Shown: piece after piece, positions 5,232 to 62,170 of the stretch
Numbering within the stretch: the first letter of the stretch is position 1
Layout: every line of letters starts with the position of its first letter
NCBI GenBank assembly: GCA_035477115.1
Contig: DATIKW010000039.1
Span: forward strand, 19,405 to 83,404
Direction: 5' to 3'
Source of the DNA: Bacillota bacterium
GTDB lineage: Bacteria; Bacillota; Sulfobacillia; UBA995
Length of the DNA: 64,000 nucleotides
Notes under the pieces: generated by a model
What the model was told of the DNA's origin: nothing
Database searches by the model: none
What the model saw: the letters and a program-made list of their open reading frames with translations, nothing else
Made by a program: the position numbers and the translations under genes

Positions 5232-5755
5232 GGGCGCCTCCCGCTGCAACCATAGTCCCGCCCCTTCGGGTCTGTCCGTGCGCTGCCCGGGATAAACGCT
5301 TCCTGCCCGCAGCCGCCGCCCGGGTGACGGGCGACGCGGTAGGTGGGCGGCGGCAGGCGGCGGGCGACCTGGCGTGCTCCCCGCCAGGCGACGACCAGCC
5401 CCAGCCCCATTCCTGCCGCCGCCCCGAGGTCGGATCCGGCCAGCCAGTACCCGGCGAGCGCACCGGCCATGGCTCCAAGCAACGGCAAACCGAAAGCCAG
5501 GAGCCAGCCCCGCGTCAAATGGCGGCCATCGATGGTAACCAGCACCGCATCGCCGGGAGCGAGGCCGGGCTCCTCCGCTATCCCCTCCACTTCCCGCCAA
5601 CCGGCAGCCGGCAGCAACTGGAAATCCACTCCCCCGGGGCAGGGGCCGCCGCGCCCGCATGCCCGGTCGCGCTGAACCCGCACCCGCACCCTCGTGCCCT
5701 GCACGGCCACGACGCACCCGGCCGCCGCCACCTCACCGCCCCGCTCCTTGACCAT
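5228..5755 (-). CDS. RseC/MucC-family protein (SoxR-reducing system RseC-like; Cys-rich N-domain plus 2 TM segments)
   Basis: MVKERGGEVAAAGCVVAVQGTRVRVRVQRDRACGRGGPCPGG, then two hydrophobic helices. Architecture typical of PF04246. Confidence 0.6.
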   Translation of the reverse strand: MVKERGGEVAAAGCVVAVQGTRVRVRVQRDRACGRGGPCPGGVDFQLLPAAGWREVEGIAEEPGLAPGDAVLVTIDGRHLTRGWLLAFGLPLLGAMAGALAGYWLAGSDLGAAAGMGLGLVVAWRGARQVARRLPPPTYRVARHPGGGCGQEAFIPGSARTDPKGRDYGCSGRRP

Positions 5756-14004: not shown

Positions 14005-16140
14005 TCAATCGTCGGCCGCGGCCGCCCTCGGCGACGCAGATCGGAAGGTAGTGAGCCCGATCAGCCTATCCCCCAGGACGAGGATCTGCGGCAGCACTAT
14101 GAGCACCATCACGCACGACAACAGCGCCCCCCGCCCGATCAGGATCCCGAGGGTGGACACGCTCGGAATACCGGAGACCCATCCCAGCGTGAAGCCGGCC
14201 GCGGTCATTACGGCCGCCGAGGCGATGATGGATCTGCCGGCGGCATCGATGGCCCGCGCCGCCGCTTCGCGCGCGCCTACGACCTTGCGGTACGCCAGAT
14301 AGCGATCGGTGAGGAGGATGGCGTAGTCCACGGTTGCGCCCAGTTGTACGGCGCTGACGATCATGTAACCGATGAAGATGAGCGGAACCCCCAGGAAGTA
14401 TGGCACCGCCATGTTGAACCAGATGGAACTCTGGATGGTGAAGACCAGCAAGATGGGCAGTAGCAGCGACCGGAAGGTCAGGAGGATGATGCCGCCAACG
14501 GCGACCATGCTCAGCATGCTCACGATCCGGAAGTCGTACCCCACGACCTCCCTGATATCCCGGATGGCGGGCGACACACCCAGCATCCGGTGATCGCCGG
14601 GGTAGTACCGCTCGGCTACGGCCTCGATGTCGGCCAGGGCGGTGAAGGCCGCGGCGCTCTCCGCGGGAGCGGCCAGTCGCATCACAAGGCGCGAGTAGCG
14701 CTCTCCCTCAAAGTCATCCCGCAGCGCCTCCGGCAATGCGGAGCGCGGTATGCCGGGGCCGGCCAACGCGGCCAGCGAACGCACATCTTTCACGCCCGGC
14801 GAGTCCTTCAGGGCCCGGGTGAGCGCGACCTCGCCAGGGATGTTCCCTGCCGGCACGATCAGCACCAGCTGGTTTGAGGCGCCGAAGACTTCCGTCATCG
14901 CCCGCCCTCCCTCGTCGCCGCCGAGGGAATCCCCATAGAGGAAGTGGTTGGCCGACTGTCCGAGGTAAGCGATGGGCAACAAGATGATCACCACGACGGG
15001 GACCACGTACCGCTGCCGCAAGATCCGCCTTCCCAGGTCCCGCAACTCGGGGACGAGCGGTCGATGGCGGGTGCGATCGATCAGGCGCTCGCCGGCGACG
15101 ACCAGACCGGGAAGCACCGACATCACGGCAGCCAGGCTCAGCGCAACCCCTTTTACCAGTGTCAGCCCGAGTTCAACTCCGATTCCGTACCGCATGGCCA
15201 TGAGCGCGGCGAACCCCGCAGCCGTGGTCAACGCGCTCGCGCCGATGCAGGAGACCGAGTGCTTGAGTGCCCGCACCATGGCCTCGCCGGCTGCCGCGCC
15301 GGCAGCCCGCTCCTCGGCGAATCGGTGCAGCAGGAAGATGGAGTAATCCATCGTGACGGCGAACTGAAGCAGCGGCGCCGCTGCCTGGGTGATGAACGAG
15401 ACTTCCCCCAGCACCACGTTGGTGCCCATGTTGATCACGACGGATGCCCCTACCGTTGCCATGATCAAGAGCGGTTCGAACCAGGAAGTCGTGAACACGG
15501 CGAGGATGGCCAGGAAGATGGGCACCACCAGGATGGTGATCACCAGGATCTCGCGGGAGCCCCGTTCTCGAGACACGAGGGCGTCCACTGCCGGACCGCG
15601 CAGGACTACGTTCCCATCGCCCAGCCGTCTGAGGGAGGCAACGGCTCGACCCGTGACCGGGCTGTAGTCATTCTGCGCGAACAGCACATCGAATAGCGCG
15701 TGACCTTCCCGGTAGTATCGCCCGACAAGAGCGCCATCCAGGAACTCCAGGGGGACCGTCACGTCGGCGAAGTCATCCAGCCAGATGACATCGCTTACGC
15801 CGGGAGTCGCCGCGATCTCCCGTTTCATCTGGACCGCCTCGGGGATGCTCACCCCATCCACCATCAGTTGCGCCGTGCCGTGCGACCCGAATTCCTCGGC
15901 ATGGATCGCGATGGCCGCGCGCGTCCCCATCGCCTGCGGCAGGTAACGGGTATTGTCATAGTTGACGGTCACGCGAGGGATGAGGACGGCGCTGAGCAGG
16001 GTAGCCAACCCGAATAGCCCCAAGAACCATTGGCGTCTCCTGACCACGAAGCGGGCAAATCGGTCCAAATCGGCTACCTCCGCAATCGCGAACTTTTGTT
16101 CGCTTTTCAAGGACAAGAATCCGCAGCCTGAGCCACCCAA
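14005..16140 (-). CDS. MMPL-family (RND superfamily) membrane transporter
   Basis: 711 aa with two MMPL repeats, each a periplasmic loop followed by a 6-TM bundle. The TetR-MMPL(YdfJ-like)-YhgE arrangement is typical of Firmicutes. Confidence 0.85.
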   Translation of the reverse strand: MGGSGCGFLSLKSEQKFAIAEVADLDRFARFVVRRRQWFLGLFGLATLLSAVLIPRVTVNYDNTRYLPQAMGTRAAIAIHAEEFGSHGTAQLMVDGVSIPEAVQMKREIAATPGVSDVIWLDDFADVTVPLEFLDGALVGRYYREGHALFDVLFAQNDYSPVTGRAVASLRRLGDGNVVLRGPAVDALVSRERGSREILVITILVVPIFLAILAVFTTSWFEPLLIMATVGASVVINMGTNVVLGEVSFITQAAAPLLQFAVTMDYSIFLLHRFAEERAAGAAAGEAMVRALKHSVSCIGASALTTAAGFAALMAMRYGIGVELGLTLVKGVALSLAAVMSVLPGLVVAGERLIDRTRHRPLVPELRDLGRRILRQRYVVPVVVIILLPIAYLGQSANHFLYGDSLGGDEGGRAMTEVFGASNQLVLIVPAGNIPGEVALTRALKDSPGVKDVRSLAALAGPGIPRSALPEALRDDFEGERYSRLVMRLAAPAESAAAFTALADIEAVAERYYPGDHRMLGVSPAIRDIREVVGYDFRIVSMLSMVAVGGIILLTFRSLLLPILLVFTIQSSIWFNMAVPYFLGVPLIFIGYMIVSAVQLGATVDYAILLTDRYLAYRKVVGAREAAARAIDAAGRSIIASAAVMTAAGFTLGWVSGIPSVSTLGILIGRGALLSCVMVLIVLPQILVLGDRLIGLTTFRSASPRAAAADD

Positions 16141-16156
16141 GCTGCGCCGCGTTCGT

Positions 16157-16747
16157 TCAGCCCGTTACCCCGAGCCTACACTCGATGTCTTGGAAGTAGA
16201 AGATCAACATCCGGTTGATCAGTTCTTCAATGCGCTGGATATCGGAGATGCTGCGCAGGATGATGAACAGCCCCTCCACAAACCCGGATGCGATCAGGTG
16301 AATCAGCACATCGTCTCCTTCCCCCGCACCCGAATACAACTCTTCCTTGATTCGCCTCGCAACCATGGCGATGAGCGTCTCCAGAAAGTCTTCGTGGCGT
16401 GAGCCCGAACTCTTGTCGGCGACCACCAGGAGTTGCCGCCCGTGCCGCGAGTACACGCCCATGATGCCGCTCGCGATGTGCCGCGCTATCGAGCGAACAT
16501 CTCCCCGGTTCTGCTTGCTTAGCTGGTGCGACTCGAAGATCAACGCGGATATGTCGCGGTAACCCGCCTGAACGATCGCGTCGAATATCTCCTCTTTATT
16601 CTTGAAATAGCGATAGATATTGCCGGTAGCGACGCGGGCCCGCCTGGCCATCCGCCGCATCTGGGCGCCGCCGAACCCGTGTTGCTCGAATTCGGCGAGG
16701 GCGGCTTCCAAGATCCGCGCCCTGATCTCTTCCTTCTGATATTGCAT
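16157..16747 (-). CDS. TetR/AcrR-family transcriptional regulator
   Basis: N-terminal helix-turn-helix: ILEAALAEFEQHGFGGAQMRRMARRARVATGNIYRYFKNKEEIF. Confidence 0.85.
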   Translation of the reverse strand: MQYQKEEIRARILEAALAEFEQHGFGGAQMRRMARRARVATGNIYRYFKNKEEIFDAIVQAGYRDISALIFESHQLSKQNRGDVRSIARHIASGIMGVYSRHGRQLLVVADKSSGSRHEDFLETLIAMVARRIKEELYSGAGEGDDVLIHLIASGFVEGLFIILRSISDIQRIEELINRMLIFYFQDIECRLGVTG

Positions 16748-16840
16748 GCGTGAACCACCGTTCGCCTTTACTTCAGAGCTTACAGCAGATCGCCATCGCT
16801 GTCAAGGACTGCGAGTTGCCTTGCGACTGCGGGAACGGCA

Positions 16841-16908
16841 GGGGCGGGTTCCGGTCGCGATCCGGGTAACGGTCCGGGTAGGGGCGGGTTCCGAACCCGC
16901 CCCTACAG
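16841..16908. repeat. 1.5 copies of the 29-bp palindromic intergenic element GGGGCGGGTTCCGAACCCGCCCCTAC (a partial copy GGGGCGGGTTCCGG about 16841, a full copy about 16878-16908)
   Basis: Perfect inverted repeat (11-bp arms, 3-nt centre) seen directly in the sequence. The same element recurs at 20940-20968 and 39453-39478. Confidence 0.6.
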
Positions 16909-17008
16909 CCATCCCCCTTGCTCCTATCGACTATCTCGGCCTATCTCAATTCAGGGAGATGGGGCCCGCCTTTCCATGCACCCGGCACCCCGAACGCATA
17001 TGCGGGTC

Positions 17009-18682
17009 TCAGATCTCGACCCGCTGATAGCGACCGGCGGCCGTGCGCAGCAGCACCGCAAGGATGGCGGCTCCTGCCAGCAGCGATGCGGCGGACACCG
17101 TCAACAGGGCCGCGGCCAGATCCATCCCGGCGCCCAGCAGCCTCATCACCGCAACCCCTTGCCCCGCCATCAGCCCGCCCCCAAGGGCCATGGCCAACAG
17201 GACATTCAGGTTCTCCTTGATGGCGGCAACCGGGTTCTGCCAGGTCAGGTAAGGCCGCATGATATCCAGGAGCAGGCTCAGACCTATGAGGGGCAGACTG
17301 GCGGCCATGCCGGCTGCGGCTACCAGGAGGAAGTCCGTCACCGGCCATCCGGCGACTCCAAACCCGAGGATCGCCAGCACGGGAAGGGTCAGGAGCATGA
17401 TCAGATAGGCCTGAGCCAGCTTCGCCTGTACCTGGACCTTCGGGTCCACCGGGATCGTCCGCGACACCCAGAAGAGCCTGCCTTCCCTGGAGAAGGCCGA
17501 AGAAGACGCGGGGGCCATCAGGGCCATCGCCGCCACGTATCCGGCCCCTGCCAGCCGGGACACAGTGGGGCTGCCGAGCAGAAGATCCTGCAAACCGGGT
17601 TGGGCGGCATCACCAATGGCGAGGAGGGGGAGGGCCATCAGCACCGGCAGGAGGGGTATCATGGCAACGCTGTTCAGCAGCGACATCGGCTCGCGAGTGA
17701 GCAGCCGGAGATCGCGCAGCGCGATGGCCCATACCGGCCCTCGGACCCGCCGGACCCGCATCGCCAACTGGCTGTCCGTCAGGCCCCGTCCGGCGCGCAC
17801 TTCCTCGCCGCCGATCAGCCCGCCATAGAACAGCCGCTGTCCGAGGGCAAACGCGATGGCGGTCATCCCGAGCGCCCCGCCGGCCAACGCCAGCAGCCAC
17901 CCGAGACGTACCGCTACGGCAGGGGCGGTGAGGGCCCGGGTGGCCCAGACGGCCGGCGGGAAAGCCCTCCCTGCTTGGACGATGAGACCGTCTCCGGGGA
18001 GGAGGAGCCGGGCTACAAACTCCGCCTCGCGCCCGGGCGGTCCAATCCGGGCGGGCAGCATCGCGAAGACGGAGATGGCCAATGTCAGCACGATCATCCC
18101 GATCAGGCGCACGGCGTCCTTGTGCCGGGCTACGTTGGCCGCCCGCATCAGGACCATGACGGCCATGGCGGCCAGGCTCACGGGGATCACCGGGGTCACG
18201 AGGTAGACGGCAAAGGCTTGCAGCCAATAGAGGCCGCCCGCCCCCGATCGGATCCCATACACCAGTAGACCGGGCAGCACCAAGGGAGCCATGGTCAAGT
18301 ACCCGGCGACGAGCACGACGACGAACTTGCCGGACAGGACTTGCCAGGGCGCAAGGGGGAGAGCGATCAGCATGGGCAAGTCCGTGGAGAAGTAGAACAC
18401 GGACATAACGTACGCGAATCCGAGAAACAGGACCGCCGCCGCGGCCGCCACCATGGACATGGTCAGGACTACCGGGGTCTGGCCTAGCGGCAAGGTCAGG
18501 TCGTAGGCGGCGTTCAGGAGGCGCTGGTACAGGTAGACCATGGGGGCTACCCCGGCGGCCACCGCTACCGCTATCCCCACAAACGCCAGGCACCTGATGT
18601 CCCGGCGCCGGACGTAATACCAGGCCAAAGAGAGTCCGAAATGCGCTTTCAGGCTGGTGGTCCAGACGGCCCGGGTGGTCAT
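17009..18682 (-). CDS. ABC-exporter permease (12-TM, 'putative ABC exporter' family)
   Basis: 557 aa, highly hydrophobic. Its start overlaps the upstream ATPase stop by 4 bp. Paralogous to 23615..25297. Confidence 0.75.
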   Translation of the reverse strand: MTTRAVWTTSLKAHFGLSLAWYYVRRRDIRCLAFVGIAVAVAAGVAPMVYLYQRLLNAAYDLTLPLGQTPVVLTMSMVAAAAAVLFLGFAYVMSVFYFSTDLPMLIALPLAPWQVLSGKFVVVLVAGYLTMAPLVLPGLLVYGIRSGAGGLYWLQAFAVYLVTPVIPVSLAAMAVMVLMRAANVARHKDAVRLIGMIVLTLAISVFAMLPARIGPPGREAEFVARLLLPGDGLIVQAGRAFPPAVWATRALTAPAVAVRLGWLLALAGGALGMTAIAFALGQRLFYGGLIGGEEVRAGRGLTDSQLAMRVRRVRGPVWAIALRDLRLLTREPMSLLNSVAMIPLLPVLMALPLLAIGDAAQPGLQDLLLGSPTVSRLAGAGYVAAMALMAPASSSAFSREGRLFWVSRTIPVDPKVQVQAKLAQAYLIMLLTLPVLAILGFGVAGWPVTDFLLVAAAGMAASLPLIGLSLLLDIMRPYLTWQNPVAAIKENLNVLLAMALGGGLMAGQGVAVMRLLGAGMDLAAALLTVSAASLLAGAAILAVLLRTAAGRYQRVEI

Positions 18683-19404
18683 GTTTCCGTCAACTCCAGG
18701 AAGATCTGCTCCAGGGACTCCTTGTCGCGGGCTTGATCGCGCAGTTCATCCATGGTGCCGAGGGCGATGAGCTTGCCCTTGTGAATGATGCCGATCCGGT
18801 CGCACAGCTTCTCGGCCACCTCCAGGATGTGGGTGGAGAAGAAGACGGCCCGGCCGTGCGCGCATCGGTCGCGGAGGATCTCCTTGAAATGATGGGCCGA
18901 CCGCGGGTCCAGACCTACCATGGGCTCGTCCATGATGAAGATCATCGGGTCGTGCAGCAGCGCTCCCACCAGGACGATCTTGTGGCGCATGCCGTGGGAG
19001 TAGCTCTTGATGGGATCGGCCACGACCCGCGTGAGGGCGAACAGCTCAAGAAGGTGCGGGATCCGCTCCTGGCGCTCCTCGGCCTTGACTCGGTACACGT
19101 CGGCCAGGAAGTTCAGATACTCGATGCCCGTCAAACGCTGGTAGATATCAGGATTGTCCGGCACGTAACTCAGGCGCCGCTTCACTTCCAGCGGAGAACC
19201 GGCCAGATCGTACCCGGCCATCCGTATGCTCCCCCGGTCGGGCCGGAGCAGCCCCACCATCATCTTGATGGTGGTGGTCTTGCCGGCGCCGTTGGGCCCG
19301 AGAAAGCCGAAAACCTCGCCCGCCCTGACCGACAGGTCCAGGGCGTCCACGGCCTTGACTTGCCCCCGGTTGTAGGTCTTGGTCAGCCCGCTCAGCTCGA
19401 TCAA
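18679..19404 (-). CDS. ABC transporter ATP-binding protein
   Basis: Walker A (GPNGAGKTT), the YSHGMRHKIVLVGAL signature region, Walker B (IFIMDEP). Confidence 0.9.
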   Translation of the reverse strand: MIELSGLTKTYNRGQVKAVDALDLSVRAGEVFGFLGPNGAGKTTTIKMMVGLLRPDRGSIRMAGYDLAGSPLEVKRRLSYVPDNPDIYQRLTGIEYLNFLADVYRVKAEERQERIPHLLELFALTRVVADPIKSYSHGMRHKIVLVGALLHDPMIFIMDEPMVGLDPRSAHHFKEILRDRCAHGRAVFFSTHILEVAEKLCDRIGIIHKGKLIALGTMDELRDQARDKESLEQIFLELTET

Positions 19405-19658
19405 CGTCCCATGCCCTCCGTTTCCCCCCCGGTGCGACCGGCCGCCGCTCCGGCCTCCCCGCTGGCGGGGGACCGCCGTCCCTCCTCACGCTCGCGGTCC
19501 AGCTTCCTCCTCCTCTGTCGGACGCAGTCGGTCAACAAATACTCGATCTGCCCGTTGATGGAACGGAAATCATCCCGTGCCCATGCGGCCAACTCGCGCC
19601 ACAAGGCGGGCGACAGGCGCAACACCAGTTGCTTCTTGCCGTTCTCCCGGTCGGCCAC
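19401..19658 (-). CDS. Arc/MetJ-type ribbon-helix-helix DNA-binding protein (putative regulator of the downstream ABC exporter)
   Basis: KKQLVLRLSPALWRELAAWARDDFRSINGQIEYLL matches the Arc-like RHH pattern. 85 aa, 4-bp overlap with the ATPase gene. Apparent GTG start. Confidence 0.55.
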   Translation of the reverse strand: MADRENGKKQLVLRLSPALWRELAAWARDDFRSINGQIEYLLTDCVRQRRRKLDREREEGRRSPASGEAGAAAGRTGGETEGMGR

Positions 19659-19681
19659 GGCGGTACGCCCGCACCCCCGAT

Positions 19682-20710
19682 TCAGTATAGAGTCCCGCTG
19701 TTGACGATGGGCTGGACGTCACGGTTGCCGCATAGTACCACCAGGAGGTTGCTCACCATGGTCGCTTTGCGTTCCTCGTCGAGTTTGACGATATCGTTCT
19801 CGTTCAGCTTGGCCAGCGCCATCTCCACCATGCCCACCGCGCCTTCCACGATCAGTTGTCTCGCATCCACGATAGCCGAAGCCTGTTGGCGCTGGAGCAT
19901 GGCCGCCGCGATCTCGGGAGCGTAGGACAGGTGAGTGATGCGGGACTCCAGGACCTCGAGCCCCGCGGCCTCGACCTTGGCCTGGAGTTCCCCGCGGAGG
20001 CGGTCCGCCACTTCCTGGCTGCTGCCGCGCAGCGACATCTCCGCTTCATCGCGAGGAGAATCGTAAGGATAGTCGCGGACGATGTTACGCAGGGCCGCGT
20101 CGCACTGGATAGACAGGAATTCCTTGTAGTTCTCCACGTTGAACAGCGCCTTGGCCGTGTTGACCACCCTCCAGATGACCACGACGCCGATGATCACCGG
20201 GTTACCGAGCTTGTCGTTGACCTTCTGCTGGTCGTTGTTCAGCGTCTCCGCCTTGAGCGATATGGCCATCCGGCGACCGGCACCCGGGAGAGACAAGGCG
20301 CCGGAGCCGGCCCGCGCGGCAGGCGCGGCAGGACCGAATGGGTTCACCGGACTGACGAAGGGATGGACGAAGAAGAAGCCTTCGGACTTGAGCGTACCGT
20401 AGTACTTCCCGAACAAGGTCAGGACCAGCGCTTCATTGGGCCGCACCACTTTCAGCCCCAGGAAGATGATCGGCCCGATGATGGCAAGGTACAGCAGGCC
20501 GACACCGATCATGACCATGGCCGCCCTGAACCTTCCGGCGGGGACGAGCGCGCCTGCCGCTCCTTCCGCCATAACCGCTCCGTACACCACCACAACCAGG
20601 GCGGCGATCATCAAGGCCAGGTTGATCACCAGGACGGGCATCCCCGGCCAAGCAGGTGCATTCGCCTCAGCTTGAGGCGCGGTTCTGGGCCCAACAGCTC
20701 TTTCCGACAT
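19682..20710 (-). CDS. SPFH/band-7 (stomatin/prohibitin-like) membrane protein
   Basis: N-terminal TM segments followed by an SPFH domain (EALVLTLFGKYYGTLKSEGFFFV...QKVNDKLGNPVIIGVVVIWRVVNTAKALFNVENY...). Confidence 0.85.
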   Translation of the reverse strand: MSERAVGPRTAPQAEANAPAWPGMPVLVINLALMIAALVVVVYGAVMAEGAAGALVPAGRFRAAMVMIGVGLLYLAIIGPIIFLGLKVVRPNEALVLTLFGKYYGTLKSEGFFFVHPFVSPVNPFGPAAPAARAGSGALSLPGAGRRMAISLKAETLNNDQQKVNDKLGNPVIIGVVVIWRVVNTAKALFNVENYKEFLSIQCDAALRNIVRDYPYDSPRDEAEMSLRGSSQEVADRLRGELQAKVEAAGLEVLESRITHLSYAPEIAAAMLQRQQASAIVDARQLIVEGAVGMVEMALAKLNENDIVKLDEERKATMVSNLLVVLCGNRDVQPIVNSGTLY

Positions 20711-20734
20711 GTCCTCGCGTCCCCTCTGTCGTCG

Positions 20735-20775
20735 AGTGCGATATCATTATGATATCATATTGCATGATACGCCCT
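20735..20775 (-). promoter_or_regulatory. AT-rich island with near-palindrome GATATCATTATGATATCATATTGCATGATA upstream of the SPFH gene (putative promoter/operator)
   Basis: A sharp local AT excursion in a 68% GC background, just upstream of the 20710 start. Confidence 0.3.
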
Positions 20776-20939
20776 CCCATCGGCGGATGTCAAGCGCACG
20801 GCTCCGCGATCTCCTCCTCCGGAAGGGGACGGATGCGCGAGGAAGTGGTACGGATAGTTGCAAGCGCGGAGACTGCGGTTGGGAACCCGGTCGTGCAGAG
20901 GAGCTAGACTGGCGCCTCGACCCGGACTGTAGTCACGGC

Positions 20940-20968
20940 GGGGCGGGTTCGGAACCCGCCCCTACCTT
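20940..20968. repeat. copy of the 29-bp palindromic element (GGGGCGGGTTCGGAACCCGCCCCTAC)
   Basis: Exact match seen in the intergenic region between the SPFH gene and cupin A. Confidence 0.6.
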
Positions 20969-21017
20969 GGGATCGACCATGACCGTGACCATGGCGGGTA
21001 CCCACTGAGGCATGCGA

Positions 21018-21476
21018 CTACGGTTTCTTGGCGGCTATGACCTCTTTCATCTCCGCCCCGGTCTTGACCGGGCGGTTCGCGTCCCGATATAGCTGTTCAA
21101 GCCGCTGGAGCGAGTGGATCTTGAGATCGGGATGCGGCGGGGGCGAGTATACCAGGATGAAGCTCGCAGTGCGGTCACTGGTGTTCTTGATTTCCACCCG
21201 CGGCCCAGGCTGCAGCGGTATCAGCATCGCCATACGCGGCAGCAGTTCATACTTCTTGCCGTCACGGGTGATGTCCAATCGACCTTCCAGCATGTAGATC
21301 GCCCGCTCCAAGAATTCTTTGCTCTCCGGCGTCGAACCGGTGGTGATACTCACGCCCGGCAGCAGGTAGCTCACGCTCATGCTGATGTTCTCGCCGAACA
21401 CGAGGGGTTGATACCAGTCGGGCTTATGGAAGAATCCGGGCATGTCATCTAGCTTGACGACCTGGAACTCCGCCAC
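21018..21476 (-). CDS. cupin-domain protein (cupin_2), paralog A
   Basis: 152 aa (MAEFQVVKLDDMPGFFHKPDWYQPLVFGEN...). About 90% identical to the gene at 21775..22233. Apparent GTG start behind GGAGGAGG. Confidence 0.7.
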   Translation of the reverse strand: MAEFQVVKLDDMPGFFHKPDWYQPLVFGENISMSVSYLLPGVSITTGSTPESKEFLERAIYMLEGRLDITRDGKKYELLPRMAMLIPLQPGPRVEIKNTSDRTASFILVYSPPPHPDLKIHSLQRLEQLYRDANRPVKTGAEMKEVIAAKKP

Positions 21477-21774
21477 CGCACATCCTCCTCCACGTGCAAG
21501 TTACCTGCCCCCCGCCTACGGGTGGACAGGGCTCTCGTGCGTCTTACCAGCTAACCATGGCGTAGTAAGTGGCATCCCTCCCCTATCCATTCGCGCCAAC
21601 GGTGTTCTTCGCCACCCGGCGATCTCCTCCTCGCGCCGGTGCGGGGGGGGGCGGGACCGCGGTTGGGAGTCCCGGGTTGCAGTCGATAGTCGTAGAAAGA
21701 GGGAAGCGGGGGACGCCTCCGTCGGTTGCCGGCGCCAGCACTCAATGCTACGGCAGAACCCGCGAGGTATGTGA

Positions 21775-22233
21775 CTATGGTTTCTTGGCGGCTATGACGT
21801 CTTTCATCTCCGCGCCAGTCTTGACCGGCCGATTGGCGTCCCGATACAGCTGTTCAAGCCGCTGGAGCGAATGGATCTTCAGGTCCGGGTGCGGCGGAGG
21901 CGAATACACGCGCACGAAGCTCGCCGTGCGGTCACCGGTGTTCTTGAGTTCCACCCGCGGCCCAGGTTGCAGCGGTATCAGCATTGCCATACGGGGGACC
22001 AGTTCATACTTCTTGCCGTCCCGGATCACGTCCAACCGACCTTCCAGCATATAAATCGCCGTTTCCAGGAACTCCGTACTCTCCGGCGTCGAACCGGTGG
22101 TGACACCCGCGCCCGGAAGCAGATAGGCCACGCTCATCCTGAGGTTCTCGCCGAAGAGCAGAGCTTGATACCAGTCGGGCTTATGAAAGAATCCGGGCAT
22201 ATCATCGAGCTTGACGACCTGGAACTCGGCCAT
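21775..22233 (-). CDS. cupin-domain protein (cupin_2), paralog B
   Basis: 152 aa, ATG start behind GGAGGAGG. Tandem duplicate of paralog A. Confidence 0.7.
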   Translation of the reverse strand: MAEFQVVKLDDMPGFFHKPDWYQALLFGENLRMSVAYLLPGAGVTTGSTPESTEFLETAIYMLEGRLDVIRDGKKYELVPRMAMLIPLQPGPRVELKNTGDRTASFVRVYSPPPHPDLKIHSLQRLEQLYRDANRPVKTGAEMKDVIAAKKP

Positions 22234-22457: not shown

Positions 22458-23612
22458 TCACTCGGAAGCGCAGTCAGACCGCTCGAACTCGATGGCGCGC
22501 GCACCATGAAACCGGGCCCACTCTTCCAAGGCGGAGGCGAAGCCACCGGGCACCTCCTGCCCCTCCCACCAGGGTCCCCTCACCACCAGCGCCCCTCGGC
22601 GCCGATCGAGGCGGGGCGCGAAACGACCGGCCAGGCGGTCGCCGTGCAGGATGGCCATCGCGTACGATCCATAGGTTCGCCGTTCCCTGGGCACGTATGC
22701 CTCCCAGCGATACTGAAAGTCGAAGAGTTCGGCCGCCCGTCGCCGGCAGATGATCAGGTTGTCCAGCGGGGGCAAGAACTTGACCCCGTCTCCCCCGCAG
22801 TCGCCCGGCGACCGCAGTTCGCTCTCCAGTTCGGCGGAGAGGTAATAGGGGTCAGCGAGGCTCCCCACAGCGACGGGGATGAGTTCGCCCGCGCCGACCA
22901 GCCGGGCGATGGTCTTCCGCCTTCCTCCGGGCGGTTGGCGGCTCCAGGCCAGATGGGGGTCGGTCGAGCTGGCCAGCCCGGCGGCCCGGAAGTACGCCCG
23001 AGCCAGGAAATCCGGGTCATCAGCGGCGCCGGCGCTGATGCCGGGCAAGACCCGCCCGGTCAAGTCGAAGAAGCGCAGGTTCCCGTGGCGGTGGTGGATG
23101 ACCAGCCGGCCGAAGTGCCATAGCCACTCCAGGGCTTGGCTGATGGCCCTGGTCCCTGCCTTCCCCTCCCGATCCCACCAGCCCTGCACCTTGTCCCGGG
23201 AGTCGAAGCAGCGCGAACTCATGGGGCCGCGAGCACCGATCGCCCGCTCGATCGCCTCGAACATGGGTTCGAAGTCCTTCAGACCCGGGCGGTAGCGCTG
23301 CTCCAACTCCCGGAATCGCGGGAGGAAGTGCGGGAACAGGACCGTGGGGACGATGCAGCGTACGGTGGTGACGGCTTCGATCAAACTGCGTTCGGCATAG
23401 AGCAGTCGATCGAGATGGGCCGGCGCATATCCGGCCACGCGGGCCTGCAGCACCAGGTGATGATTGCGCTCCACCACCTGAATGGGGTCGATCTGGACGT
23501 AGCCGAGACCGTCCACCGCCGCCCGCGCATCCGCCCACCGGGACTCGGCGGTGAGGCCATGCCGTCGCACGAGGAAAGCGCGAGCAGTCGCCGGTTCAAT
23601 CCGCAGCGGCAC
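22458..23612 (-). CDS. YcaQ-family (DUF1006) winged-helix DNA-binding protein, putative interstrand-crosslink DNA glycosylase
   Basis: Track ORF 22458..24905 trimmed to the GTG at 23612 (GGGAG upstream, 2 nt after the permease stop). VPLRIEPATARAFLVRRHGL...GYVQIDPIQVVERNHHLVLQARVAGY... is typical of YcaQ/AlkZ. Confidence 0.7.
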   Translation of the reverse strand: MPLRIEPATARAFLVRRHGLTAESRWADARAAVDGLGYVQIDPIQVVERNHHLVLQARVAGYAPAHLDRLLYAERSLIEAVTTVRCIVPTVLFPHFLPRFRELEQRYRPGLKDFEPMFEAIERAIGARGPMSSRCFDSRDKVQGWWDREGKAGTRAISQALEWLWHFGRLVIHHRHGNLRFFDLTGRVLPGISAGAADDPDFLARAYFRAAGLASSTDPHLAWSRQPPGGRRKTIARLVGAGELIPVAVGSLADPYYLSAELESELRSPGDCGGDGVKFLPPLDNLIICRRRAAELFDFQYRWEAYVPRERRTYGSYAMAILHGDRLAGRFAPRLDRRRGALVVRGPWWEGQEVPGGFASALEEWARFHGARAIEFERSDCASE

Positions 23613-23614
23613 GC

Positions 23615-25293
23615 TCAACTCCCGCGCGCGGGTTCGCCGGCATCGATCAAGGCGCCGGCCAAGAGGGCAGGCAGCGCCACCCCGCCCATGCCGAAGACCG
23701 CGAGCAATACCAGGCCGAGGGCGCGTCCCCAGCCGGGGATGTCCAAGGGGGCGGTGGCCAGGATGGCTGCGCCCCCCAGCAGTCCCAGGTATACGAGGGG
23801 CAGGACGAACCCGGCCAGCAGGGACCATCCCGACATGACCTGTTGGGTTTGCTCGCTGCTGTACCGGCTGAGCCCCACTCGGCTGAACAGGGCCCCGGCC
23901 GCGAGGGTCAGCGCCACCATCCCCGGCGTCGCGAAGACCACCGCCCCGGCCAGCGCAAGATAGTCCCATCCCCGGGCCTGCATCACCAGGCCGGTGGCGG
24001 GTACCAGCAGTATCCCGGGAGCGATGGCCAGGACCGAGGCGCCGAGGACCTTGCCCCCCACGATGTCCAGGCCGGCCAGGGGCGCGCTGCGCATCAGCAC
24101 CCAGGCTTGCCCCTCGCCGAACAGCATCCTCGTACCCATCTGAGAGGCGAGGAAGGCGTGGACCAAGCACAGTATGCCCATCGTCAGATACAGGCGAAGC
24201 GGGCCCTCCCGCCATCCGCCGGCCCCGCCGCCGGCCATGGCCGCCGGCAGGATCATCCCGATCACGACGAAGATGATCAAGTGAAAAGAGCCTGCCCAGT
24301 TCTGGGGATCGCGCACAAATATCCGCATCTCCTTGAGGGCGATGGCGAGCACCGGCGAGCGCCGGGGAAGAGGCCCGGCCGGAGCCCGGACCGCCCGGCG
24401 GCGCCTCCGCCTCCATACCTCGCCGCTGCCTGCCCATCCCCCGTAAAACGCCTCGCGAACCAGCCCGAAAGCGGCGACCAGGACGAGCAGGGATGCGGCG
24501 GTGGCCAGTGACGACCAGCCCAAAGCGACGCCCGCGTGACCCCGGGCCGCGGCGTAGGTGGCTCGTGCCAGCCACCAGGCAGGGGACAACTCGGCTTCCG
24601 ACAGCCGGAGTACCCCGATGGCCTCGGCCAAGCGCCCGGGGTCCATCCGGCCCGCGAAACGGGCGCCTAGCTGGGTCGCCGCATAGGTGATCGAAGCGAA
24701 GAGCATGCCGATGAAGCCGCCGATTTCTCGTACGCGATGGGCGGGTATCAAGCGCAGGGCAAGCAGGTTCAACAGCATGCCAACGGCCACCGGCAAGAAT
24801 ATCGTCAGCGTGCTCAGGTAGAGGACGGCTGGATAGAAGGTCCAGGATGCTCCGTAGCCGGCGCCGAAGCCGATGGTCACGGGCAGCACGAGCAATAGCA
24901 CCCACAGGCTCTGCGGCACCATCACTTCCAGCAGTTTAAGACTGAACACCTGGTTGACGGTGAGGGGGGCCACGAACAGCCTTGCCAGGTCGGAGGACGA
25001 GTACATGACCAGGAAAGCGGCGCCCACGGCGCTGAAAAGGCAGGCTACCAGTCCGATCAGGTAGATGCCGGCCAGAAGGGGCAGCGTCATGCCGGCCATG
25101 CGCTCCGCGAGGTCGGAGGGGGCGCCGGGCATGCCCGCCGCCATCCAGGCGAAAAGCTCGTATGCCCCATAGGTGAGCAAGGACGCCCAGCCGAGGGCCG
25201 CCAGCCCGCCGAGGGAGCCCAGGACGGCGGCCAACCAGGGTCTCCGGGTGTAACCGCGCCAGAGGAGGCGGAGTTTCCAGACGGCCAGGCGGA

Positions 25294-39452: not shown

Positions 39453-39478
39453 TGGGCGGGTTCGGAACCCGCCCCTAC
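39453..39478. repeat. copy of the 29-bp palindromic element (GGGCGGGTTCGGAACCCGCCCCTAC)
   Basis: Exact copy in the intergenic region between the fumarase alpha start and hicA. Confidence 0.6.
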
Positions 39479-39664: not shown

Positions 39665-39913
39665 CTACTCGTTAGCCTGCCGCCACTCGCGTTGCCGCTG
39701 CAGTAGCTCCTCAACGGCGAGCCCTACATCCCGAGCAATCTTGCGAAGCAAGGTCGGTGAGATATCGCGACCCGAGTGGAAAGGGACTGTCGTGCCTCGC
39801 CCATCCGGGTGCCGGTACTGATGATGCGACCCGCGCCGGCGGACCTCCCGAAAGCCGAGGCGGACCAATAGTACTGCCACCTCGCCAGGCTTCAAGACCG
39901 GCAAAGAACCCAT
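39665..39913 (-). CDS. hicA: HicA-family mRNA-interferase toxin
   Basis: KPGEVAVLLVRLGFREVRRRGSHHQYRHPDGRGTTVPFHSGRDISPTLLRKIARDVGL, a YcfA/HicA signature. 82 aa. Confidence 0.8.
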   Translation of the reverse strand: MGSLPVLKPGEVAVLLVRLGFREVRRRGSHHQYRHPDGRGTTVPFHSGRDISPTLLRKIARDVGLAVEELLQRQREWRQANE

Positions 39914-39916
39914 CGG

Positions 39917-40126
39917 TCACGCGACCTGGATGGTCTGAAGGCCGACGAATTCCGACTCGAGCCTTGGGTCGCCGTCTTCGAGAAGCATCGTAATAACCTC
40001 TCGCAGGTTCTTCTCGAGTTCATCGAATGTGGCTCCCTGACTGTGCGCGCCGGGCCAGCCCGGAACTGAACCGACCAAAGACCCCGTGTCGGGATCTCGC
40101 TCGATGATCACGTTAAACGTGCGCAT
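39917..40126 (-). CDS. hicB: HicB-family antitoxin (UPF0150)
   Basis: MRTFNVIIERDPDTGSLVGSVPGWPGAHSQGATFDELEKNLREVI. Lies 3 bp upstream of hicA on the same strand. Confidence 0.7.
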   Translation of the reverse strand: MRTFNVIIERDPDTGSLVGSVPGWPGAHSQGATFDELEKNLREVITMLLEDGDPRLESEFVGLQTIQVA

Positions 40127-40401
40127 GTCCTTGCCTCCCAGGTCTTTCCTCAAGCGTCCTCAGTCTACGGCGGACGCTGTCCGGCCAACACCCTCCTCCC
40201 ACAAGGAAGCGCCTCTTGCTTCCCTCTCGCAAGCTAGACTACCCGTGTCCGGAGGCGGCTACTAAACACAATAATCTCGGACCACTGCCCGGGGGGGTCA
40301 GTCTGGGCCTGGACTTCCATCTCGCGCTTGTGAACTCCTTCCAACTGAACAGCGGCCTTGCCCTGCCGGTCGCCGGTCGGGAAGGACCGGCAGAGCAGCG
40401 A

Positions 40402-61157: not shown

Positions 61158-62170
61158 CCGACCTTCACCTCCCAGCGAGCGGCCGCGCCGGCCGCAGCCG
61201 CGGTCGCGGCAGCCCGACCGTGAGCAATGCTGTCGGCCAGGGTGCGCGGTTTCTGGCAGCAACCGGCCAGGAACACCCCCGGCCGGGACGATAGCCAGTT
61301 GGCGCCGGGTTGGCCGGCGAAGAAACCGGCGGCATCCAGGTTGATCCCCAGCGCCCGGGCCAGGGCCGGGGCGTCGGGGCGCGGCCAGATGCCTACGGAC
61401 AGGACCACGCCGTCGAATGCCTCGCGGCTCACGGCCGCCTGGCGGACATCGTCGTACACCAGCGTGAGCCGGCCGTCCGCTTGGCCGACCCGGGCGGGTA
61501 TCCCCTGGACCAGCCGGATCTTCTCCCGCGCCTGCTCATACAGGTTGTGGGTGATGCGCCCGGCGGTCTGCAGGTCATTATAGAAAATGCTGATTTTGAG
61601 GTCAGGGCGATCGACCAGCAGGCCGAGCGCCAAGCGCAACGCGTAAGGACAACACACCTCCGAGCAGTAGTCCCGGCCTCGCGCCGGGCAGCGCGAGCCC
61701 ACACACTGCACGAAAGCGAGTTGCCCCCCGGTCGGCGGCTCGCCCCTCCGGACCGCCTGCTCCAGGTCGGTGCCGGTCAGGACGCCGGGCAGCCGCCCAT
61801 AGCCCAGGTCGGGCCATTCGGCGGCGGGGGCCGGCGTCATCCCCGAAGCCACGATGATCGCCTCGGCCTCCAGGACGCCGTCGCTCAACTCGACGCGAAA
61901 TGCGCCCGGCCGACCCTCCAAGGCCTGGAGGGTCGTGCCCGTCCGCACGGTGGCGGCGGATGCGGCGAGTTCCTCCCGGAGATCGGACACGAGGCACACG
62001 CCGCAGTGCAGGCAGCGGTCGGTGGCCTTGCAGGCGTAAGCAATCGCCTGGCCGCCGAGCCGTGGTTCGCGCTCGACCAGGATGACCTCACAGCCCAGTT
62101 GGCCGGCGGCGACGGCGGCAGCCATCCCCGCCACGCCTCCTCCTATCACCAGTATCCTCTCAGCAACCAA
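61154..62170 (-). CDS. HdrA-like FAD oxidoreductase (half-HdrA, N-type)
   Basis: ILVIGGGVAGMAAAVAAGQLG, CLHCGVC and CVGSRCPARGRDYCSEVCC (the HdrA CSxVCC-type motif). Confidence 0.7.
   Translation of the reverse strand: MVAERILVIGGGVAGMAAAVAAGQLGCEVILVEREPRLGGQAIAYACKATDRCLHCGVCLVSDLREELAASAATVRTGTTLQALEGRPGAFRVELSDGVLEAEAIIVASGMTPAPAAEWPDLGYGRLPGVLTGTDLEQAVRRGEPPTGGQLAFVQCVGSRCPARGRDYCSEVCCPYALRLALGLLVDRPDLKISIFYNDLQTAGRITHNLYEQAREKIRLVQGIPARVGQADGRLTLVYDDVRQAAVSREAFDGVVLSVGIWPRPDAPALARALGINLDAAGFFAGQPGANWLSSRPGVFLAGCCQKPRTLADSIAHGRAAATAAAAGAAARWEVKVG

Follow-up and report, generated by a model that had tools for sequence, protein, structure and literature searches.

The closest described relatives of the repeat reported here are the REP elements of TnpA_Y1 subclass 2.4, which is the same group as Bertels' RAYT Group 4. 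According to the available text of Quentin et al. (2018, PMC6006769), enzymes of this subclass carry the motifs NH[IFV]H, WQ, and YIxNNP, and their REPs are 'long' or 'double foot' elements with a 5′ GT[AG]G and a 3′ C[TC]AC. The same text describes, as unique to subclass 2.4, a REP inserted in frame into tnpA_REP; the insertion falls between HuH and Y, where the length varies and short repeats occur. The authors also suggest that single-unit REPs could be collapsed dimers. Table S1 of that paper (PMC6006769) gives GTAGGGGCGGGTTCTAAACCCGCCC for Chloroflexus aurantiacus and Chloroflexus sp. Y-400-fl, and a GGGCGGGTT/AACCCGCCC stem with long loops in cyanobacteria. In the available portions of two other studies, RAYT Group 4 is placed in 17 bacterial classes (Bertels et al. 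2017) and GTAG repeats in Proteobacteria, Cyanobacteria, Chloroflexi, and the PVC group (Di Nocera et al. 2013); within the available text of these three papers, Bacillota is not named for subclass 2.4 or GTAG repeats. The exact sequence reported here was absent from the Quentin 2018 table and the Di Nocera 2013 supplements, and an exact-sequence literature search gave one match, an irrelevant chicken primer. The core phenomenon, double-foot REPs and their in-frame insertion in the RAYT, is already published. What is modestly unusual here is the sequence identity across phyla, the presence in Bacillota, and the recurrent half-arm duplications.

In the window, by which we mean the whole stretch of 64,000 nucleotides analysed, the 21-nt core GGGCGGGTTC[C/G]GAACCCGCCC showed three exact matches at 16882–16902, 20941–20961, and 39454–39474 (search pattern GGGCGGGTTCSGAACCCGCCC). 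No match was obtained in 100 dinucleotide-preserving shuffles, even with three mismatches, so a chance origin of the three window copies is excluded. By direct reading, copy 1 (16878–16906, + strand) is a perfect 29-bp palindrome, GTAGGGGCGGGTTC-C-GAACCCGCCCCTAC, with the anatomy GTAG-GGGCGGGTTC-C-GAACCCGCCC-CTAC, i.e., both feet are present. Copy 2 (20940–20965, − strand) is a 23-bp palindrome with one GTAG foot, GTAGGGGCGGGTTCCGAACCCGCCCC when read on the − strand; its + strand is GGGGCGGGTTC-G-GAACCCGCCCC and then TAC, and CTAC is present on just one of its sides. Copy 3 (39454–39478, − strand) likewise has a single GTAG foot and a palindrome of 21 bp; its + strand is GGGCGGGTTC-G-GAACCCGCCC followed by CTAC, and the extended flank pairing is imperfect. 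On the + strand the central nucleotide of copy 1 is C, and the other two copies have G there. In a GTAG-first reading all three copies are GTAGGGGCGGGTTCCGAACCCGCCC, which is the + strand for copy 1 and the − strand for the other two. The palindromes span 21–29 bp with arms of 10–14 bp. A half copy, AGGGGCGGGTTCCG (16840–16853, + strand), lies 40 nt upstream of copy 1; it runs from the left arm to the hairpin apex and directly repeats the arm of copy 1 that is closer to it.

The sequence-only reading had announced three identical copies and a half copy of a perfect 29-bp palindrome, with TAC or CTAC beside each copy. The copies and the half copy are real, the latter starting one base earlier than announced, and the tetranucleotide was found at every copy; the 29-bp length holds for copy 1 but not for copies 2 and 3. 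A CRISPR-like arrangement had been dismissed, and the spacing of 4 kb and 18.5 kb in mixed orientation agrees with this. No extra full or degenerate copy was detected in the 64-kb window at up to four mismatches, and 11-nt arms with one mismatch outside the copies stayed at chance level (7 found vs ~6 expected). The three window copies share nothing beyond GGTAG and the core. No inverted-pair (BIME/REPIN) arrangement, which is typical of proteobacterial REPs but no necessary feature of the double-foot type of subclass 2.4, was seen in the window; the copies are isolated, copy 1 being accompanied only by its half arm in the same orientation. The window has a G+C content of 62–73%, and only three perfect hairpins of at least 10 bp occur in its 64 kb, two of which are REP copies. 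The other perfect 10-bp hairpin, at 61911–61935 (CGACCCTCCA-AGGCC-TGGAGGGTCG), is unrelated to the REP, and no further palindrome families were found in the window.

We consider it very probable that the window copies are GTAG-tagged double-foot REPs of the RAYT/TnpA_REP subclass-2.4 type (Bertels Group 4). This class was assigned because of the GTAG foot, the extragenic placement 3′ of genes, and the occurrence of the same palindrome in or beside subclass-2.4 RAYTs elsewhere. The copies share with the Chloroflexus double-foot REP the foot, the 9-bp stem GGGCGGGTT/AACCCGCCC, and a wide, patchy taxonomic spread, but the apex is C-C/G-G here and a CTA loop in Chloroflexus. Unlike the subclass-2.4 hosts named in the available published text, the host of the window is a high-GC uncultured member of Bacillota, with no RAYT in the stretches searched.

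Similarities to better-known repeats were also observed. The REP/BIME elements of E. coli (TnpA_REP subclass 2.2) have, like the window copies, a GTAG guide tetranucleotide at the foot of a GC-rich extragenic hairpin 3′ of genes, and are associated with a single-copy HUH/Y1 enzyme, an association known here from other genomes. E. coli REPs have an imperfect, bulged stem with a single foot and usually stand in inverted pairs, whereas the window copies stand alone as perfect, symmetric palindromes. These elements and their TnpA_REP were reportedly the subject of work by Nunvar in 2010 and by Ton-Hoang and Messing in 2012. Pseudomonas REPINs, said to go back to Bertels and Rainey in 2011, are also short palindromic repeats that are dispersed extragenically and linked to RAYTs, but a REPIN consists of two inverted REPs and a spacer, in contrast to the single units at low copy number in the window. 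The subterminal hairpins of IS200/IS605 elements resemble the window copies in so far as the latter, by analogy, would be single-stranded hairpins recognised by a Y1 HUH transposase of the PF01797 family; unlike them, the window hairpins are free-standing and not at the ends of a transposase-carrying unit. The mechanism of E. coli TnpA_REP and of IS200/IS605 was reportedly treated by Ton-Hoang and Messing in 2012 and by Corneloup in 2021.

All three copies are intergenic, as had been read from the sequence, and all genes flanking them lie on the − strand and are Pfam-supported. Copy 1 follows an ABC_tran_2 permease gene (17009–18682, −), 102 nt past its stop, and precedes the start of a TetR gene (16747, −) by 130 nt. 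Copy 2 follows a cupin gene (21018–21476, −), 52 nt past its stop, and precedes the start of a Band_7 gene (20710, −) by 226 nt. For copy 3 the gene before is hicA of a hicB-hicA pair, with its stop (39665) 186 nt away, and the gene after is that of the fumarase alpha subunit, whose start (39296) is 153 nt away. The predicted RNA hairpins of the three copies are very stable, again in line with the sequence-only reading, with energies of −25 to −32 kcal/mol and z-scores of −3.5 to −5.9 versus shuffles. Copy 1 showed −27.9 kcal/mol on the + strand and −32.4 kcal/mol on the − strand, copy 2 showed −25.3 kcal/mol, and copy 3 showed −31.7 kcal/mol. With the half copy included, the distal arm can take the place of the proximal one in pairing (86 nt, −47.4 kcal/mol). 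A resemblance to a tRNA T-arm was dropped because the loop TTCGGAA is without the invariant A58, and neither Rfam at gathering thresholds nor a tRNA/tmRNA scan returned anything in the whole window.

The distance of 52–186 nt past the stop codons of − strand genes and the stability of the stems would suit locally evolved terminators, or stem-loops that stabilise mRNA 3′ ends, rather than mobile DNA; the identity of the copies would then reflect selection for one optimal stem. Rho-independent terminators are likewise stable GC-rich stem-loops shortly after stop codons. In three other genomes the 21-mer even stands between A and T tracts, resembling a bidirectional terminator: L013:860 (an Oscillospiraceae MAG), L016:1721 (a SAR202 MAG), and L063:1122 (Pseudomonas sp. 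CR3202). Without GTAG feet, these three are probably no members of the family but ordinary bidirectional terminators with the same stem. The window copies differ from Rho-independent terminators in the GTAG foot, in being identical at unrelated loci, and in having no U tract: direct reading showed no T tract after any of the three stems on either strand, and a terminator scan of 16000–22000 did not call copies 1 and 2. The terminator role proposed from the sequence was thus not borne out. Local selection for a stem also fits poorly with an identity that reaches into the non-pairing GTAG foot, with the identical sequence in frame within RAYT genes, and with the decayed orthologous copy in UBA8125, where a stem mismatch argues against strong local selection. 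We regard this explanation as improbable, although a secondary, exapted RNA role beside the REP origin is conceivable.

Perfect dyad symmetry and the TetR gene next to copy 1 could instead indicate the operator of a dimeric host regulator, such as this TetR, or a site for a nucleoid protein, with the copies marking a regulon. E. coli REPs are themselves bound by host proteins such as IHF and gyrase. The neighbours of the three copies are functionally unrelated (ABC transporter/TetR, cupin/Band_7, and hicA/fumarase), though, and the identical sequence is present in ~12 phyla without a common neighbour among the matches listed. A stem of 10–14 bp with a centre of 1–3 nt is also atypical for a helix-turn-helix operator. 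An operator is therefore very improbable, and the conserved protein-binding site that had been suggested found no support beyond recognition by the RAYT itself.

Three further features were noted near copy 2. The spacer upstream of Band_7 contains, at ~20740–20800 (−), a promoter-like TTGACA-18-TATCAT and, after it, palindromic repeats of the ATGATATCA type. Promoter and repeats are kept in UBA8125 (L093 ~5640–5740) while the remaining spacer has diverged, and the repeats are therefore probably an operator, as judged from this conservation. The cupin gene at 21018–21476 has a tandem paralogue at 21775–22233; both encode 152-aa cupin-like proteins with a weak Cupin_2 match each. An AlkZ-like glycosylase gene follows at 22458–24905.

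The placement of the copies relative to genes was then compared over the window and UBA8125, with genes called by a simple GC3-based caller that was checked against the Pfam-supported genes of the window. Fully intergenic positions were observed for 20 of the 27 copies (12 tandem, 3 convergent, 1 divergent, and 4 at contig edges); four others overlap an ORF end, and three lie 10–58 nt before an ORF stop. As uncalled DNA makes up 18% of bases (P ~3e-10 for the intergenic excess), this placement is far from random, and the random occurrence within coding regions that would have spoken against a positional bias was not seen. Between tandem genes the copies are mostly nearer the stop of the upstream gene than the start of the next one. 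Annotators should call such sites REP elements and avoid the labels terminator, operator, or small ORF.

The ABC_tran_2 protein of the window is 89% identical to one on DOZU01000054.1 (Clostridiales bacterium UBA8125), where gene order is kept, and the fumarase protein is 95% identical to a partial protein of a 'Clostridiales bacterium' MAG. From these identities and the conserved gene order, the window organism is placed as an uncultured high-GC member of Bacillota and a close relative of UBA8125. With the window copies, the range of the GTAG double-foot REP family comes to include a high-GC clade of uncultured Bacillota.

An orthologue of copy 2, GGTAGGGGCGGGTTCTGAACCTGCCCC, stands at the same place in UBA8125 (L093:5447) and in L094 (a JGI contig). 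The family therefore predates the split of the window organism from UBA8125, and copy 2, judging from its shared position, is inherited vertically; it provides a dated example of a REP, older than this split. In UBA8125 the cupin-side flank is conserved and the orthologue shows two substitutions, one of which breaks a stem pair. This decay indicates that the copy is not under strong constraint in UBA8125.

Copy 1 has no orthologue in UBA8125, where two extra genes occupy the junction. It therefore lies at a synteny break. The UBA8125 junction (L093:9373–11627) holds a PRPP-synthetase gene and a 141-aa ORF between ABC_tran_2 and TetR; the window junction (16747–17009) is just 260 bp long and holds REP copy 1 and the half copy. 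Copy 3 is identical in L090, an independent assembly of the window organism, and is absent from the corresponding region of the relatives L091 and L092, where the whole segment differs. The region upstream of the fumarase operon varies in its toxin-antitoxin cassette: HicB/HicA is found in the window (39665–40153), RHH/PemK with a 90-aa ORF in the 94%-identical relative (L091:179–1087), and no toxin-antitoxin cassette in the 80% relative (L092:4270–4549). Short-read assemblies may also break at the palindrome: the end of one independent contig of the window organism is 64 nt away from copy 3.

In the relatives compared, none of copies 1–3 has a clean empty counterpart, the copy 2 region of the more distant relative L099 being too diverged to align, and no target site or target-site duplication could be defined from these relatives. 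Copies 1 and 3 lie at larger rearrangements. These comparisons thus give no demonstration of current mobility, and the suggestion that the element is actively propagating is not supported: copy 2 is old and has a decayed orthologue in UBA8125, and no RAYT was found in the window or the 21 UBA8125 stretches.

In an exact-match scan of reference genomes, the 21-mer was found in at least 89 stretches. Among the matches listed, about 13 phylum-level lineages are represented, namely Chloroflexota, Binatia, Desulfobacterota, Omnitrophota, Spirochaetota, Actinomycetota (Rubrobacter), Pseudomonadota, Bacillota, Bacteroidota, Ignavibacteriae, Armatimonadota, Lentisphaeria, and candidate division FCPU426. 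Desulfacinum hydrothermale DSM 13146 and Geobacter argillaceus, both cultured strains, are among the organisms with the exact 21-mer. UBA8125 accounts for at least 24 exact copies, spread over 21 stretches, and a single copy among the matches listed belongs to the related Firmicutes bacterium UBA995. A search of viral contigs with the 21-mer gave no matches.

A tally of feet and symmetry took in 100 copies, the three of the window and 97 found in other genomes; both flanks were readable in 99 of them. The four bases adjoining each end are strongly conserved: 48 copies have GTAG 5′ of the core and 45 have CTAC 3′ of it; the two occur together (GTAG...CTAC) in 31/99, and at least one GT[AG]G foot was present in 66/99. 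A symmetric variant, GTAC...GTAC, accounted for 9/99 copies. It occurs at L003, L014, L033, L041, L043, L055, L061, and L078 (Anaerolineaceae BF4_28, Chloroflexia), where the longer flanks of the BF4_28 copies are often similar. A compensatory change from C:G to T:A at the stem apex, which keeps the palindrome, was observed in GTAGGGGCGGGTTTGAAACCCGCCCCTAC, the DNA of one VGAGLKPAPT protein.

Beyond the feet, the flanks in the pooled set are unrelated between copies, which bears on the possibility that the palindrome is a passenger in a longer non-autonomous MITE moved by a DDE transposase. This is apparently the case in Desulfacinum hydrothermale DSM 13146, where the palindrome is central in a ~230-bp repeated unit with inverted ends GGAGCCTGTCYGA...TCAGACAGGCTCC (L006, L015, L018, L020, L024, L036, L038, L056, L080, and L088). 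The unit looks like a MITE-like carrier that picked up the REP. Two pairs of UBA8125 copies also share 48–59 nt of flank. Against such a carrier in the window lineage, the window copies have only GGTAG and the core in common, and just five pairwise flank matches were found among 28 copies (window, UBA8125, and UBA995), one of them being the half arm. The flanks being unrelated in this lineage, the repeat unit is the palindrome itself and not a longer MITE, and we see hardly any likelihood that the window copies were carried in this way. The REP/MITE-like character that the sequence-only reading proposed first was right, given the GTAG foot, the extragenic position, and the RAYT link in other genomes.

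An extra half arm within 80 nt was observed in 14 of the 100 pooled copies, including the window's (<1 expected), and in every case it was a direct repeat of the nearer arm. The loci are the window, L003, L007, L029, L030, L055, L067, L072, L077, L083, L085, and L089; at the UBA8125 locus L085 the half arm has a 40-nt offset, matching that of the window. Tandem half copies also occur within RAYT ORFs (e.g., VGAGSVGAGSEPAPT; five left-arm units in L083), where they appear as in-frame runs of VGAGS or EPAPT (15-nt units). This pattern suggests breakage or template switching at the hairpin apex.

The link to RAYTs came from the search for an associated RAYT/IS200-like transposase that the sequence-only reading had rightly recommended, in which the palindrome was found inside and beside subclass-2.4 RAYT genes in nine other genomes. 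By tblastn, it lies within an IS200-like Y1 transposase ORF in 9/89 listed stretches from different phyla. Eight stretches include the relevant part of the ORF, and all eight have the palindrome in frame at one and the same position, after the HuH motif and before the next helix; in L002, for example, the ORF reads ...MPNHVHGIVLIVDDL-VGAGSEPAPT-MAMVTTRRHGLPEIVRQFKTFSARRIN...NYYEHIIR.... The remaining one, L007, is a fragment at a contig end, and there the palindrome falls close to the C-terminus of the ORF. Six of the nine transposase genes have an additional copy outside the ORF within ~200 nt. The motifs read from these sequences, NH[VIL]H, WQ, and YIxNNP, agree with the signature published for subclass 2.4. 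Two of the proteins were scanned; both passed Pfam Y1_Tnp with 26–29 bits (cutoff 23), and their best NCBIfam match was REP_Tyr_transpos with 70 bits, below the 80-bit equivalog cutoff. A protein database search gave at least 7965 homologues, several of them named 'REP element-mobilizing transposase RayT'. At the palindrome site many of the homologues carry VGAGSEPAPT, VGAGLKPAPT, or VGAGFKPAPT, with variable runs of VGAGS or EPAPT.

In the RAYT frame (first codon GTA), the 29-bp palindrome encodes VGAGSEPAPT on either strand, because its only asymmetric base falls on the wobble position of Ser (TCC/TCG). Whichever way round it went in, an insertion in this frame would therefore contribute the same ten residues. 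Spurious 'VGAGSEPAPT' peptides are also easily read from the palindrome in high-GC genomes.

The search for a RAYT in the host lineage itself was negative. No RAYT or other HuH/Y1 ORF was detected in the 64-kb window by tblastn at E up to 1 or by a six-frame HuH...Y search, and none was found in the 21 UBA8125 stretches (~122 kb); tblastn was run with and without the palindrome insert in the queries. A weak match in L084 (UBA8125) was owed to the palindrome and vanished with insert-free queries. Among the 120 RAYT homologues listed, none bears a Bacillota name. For the window genome, a RAYT partner is thus putative, by analogy with the other genomes. Plasmids gave only seven distant matches in the RAYT protein search, all below 42% identity and all non-mobilizable, so there is no obvious vector of spread.

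If the window copies are REPs of this type, they would, by analogy with E. coli TnpA_REP and IS200/IS605, fold as hairpins in single-stranded DNA at the replication fork, where an HUH/Y1 enzyme would recognise the hairpin together with the GTAG guide tetranucleotide. The Y1 enzyme would then cut and rejoin the strand, dispersing REP copies to new sites, and copies would persist where they are harmless, chiefly in 3′ untranslated regions. Once transcribed, the hairpin could shield upstream mRNA from 3′ exonucleases or attenuate read-through.

A more speculative extension is that the subclass-2.4 RAYT gene carries an in-frame 'master copy' of its REP, so that horizontal transfer of the gene alone would re-seed the identical REP in each new host across phyla, and the half arms would be footprints of the enzyme or of template switching at the hairpin apex. 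We offer this as a tentative idea and consider it rather unlikely; on it, the window copies could be orphans left after loss of the RAYT gene. One exact REP in many phyla, with copies within the RAYT reading frame and with the half-arm expansions, may interest students of REP/RAYT spread and diversification.

One further RAYT locus was observed. In L100:5667–9729 (also in L101–L103; 23 contigs), a type I restriction-modification operon has a subclass-2.4 RAYT gene, with the insert VGAGLKPAPT, placed between hsdM and hsdS and overlapping each of them; AAA_15/DUF4276 genes and hsdR follow. This is a conserved and unexpected placement of a RAYT in a defence locus.
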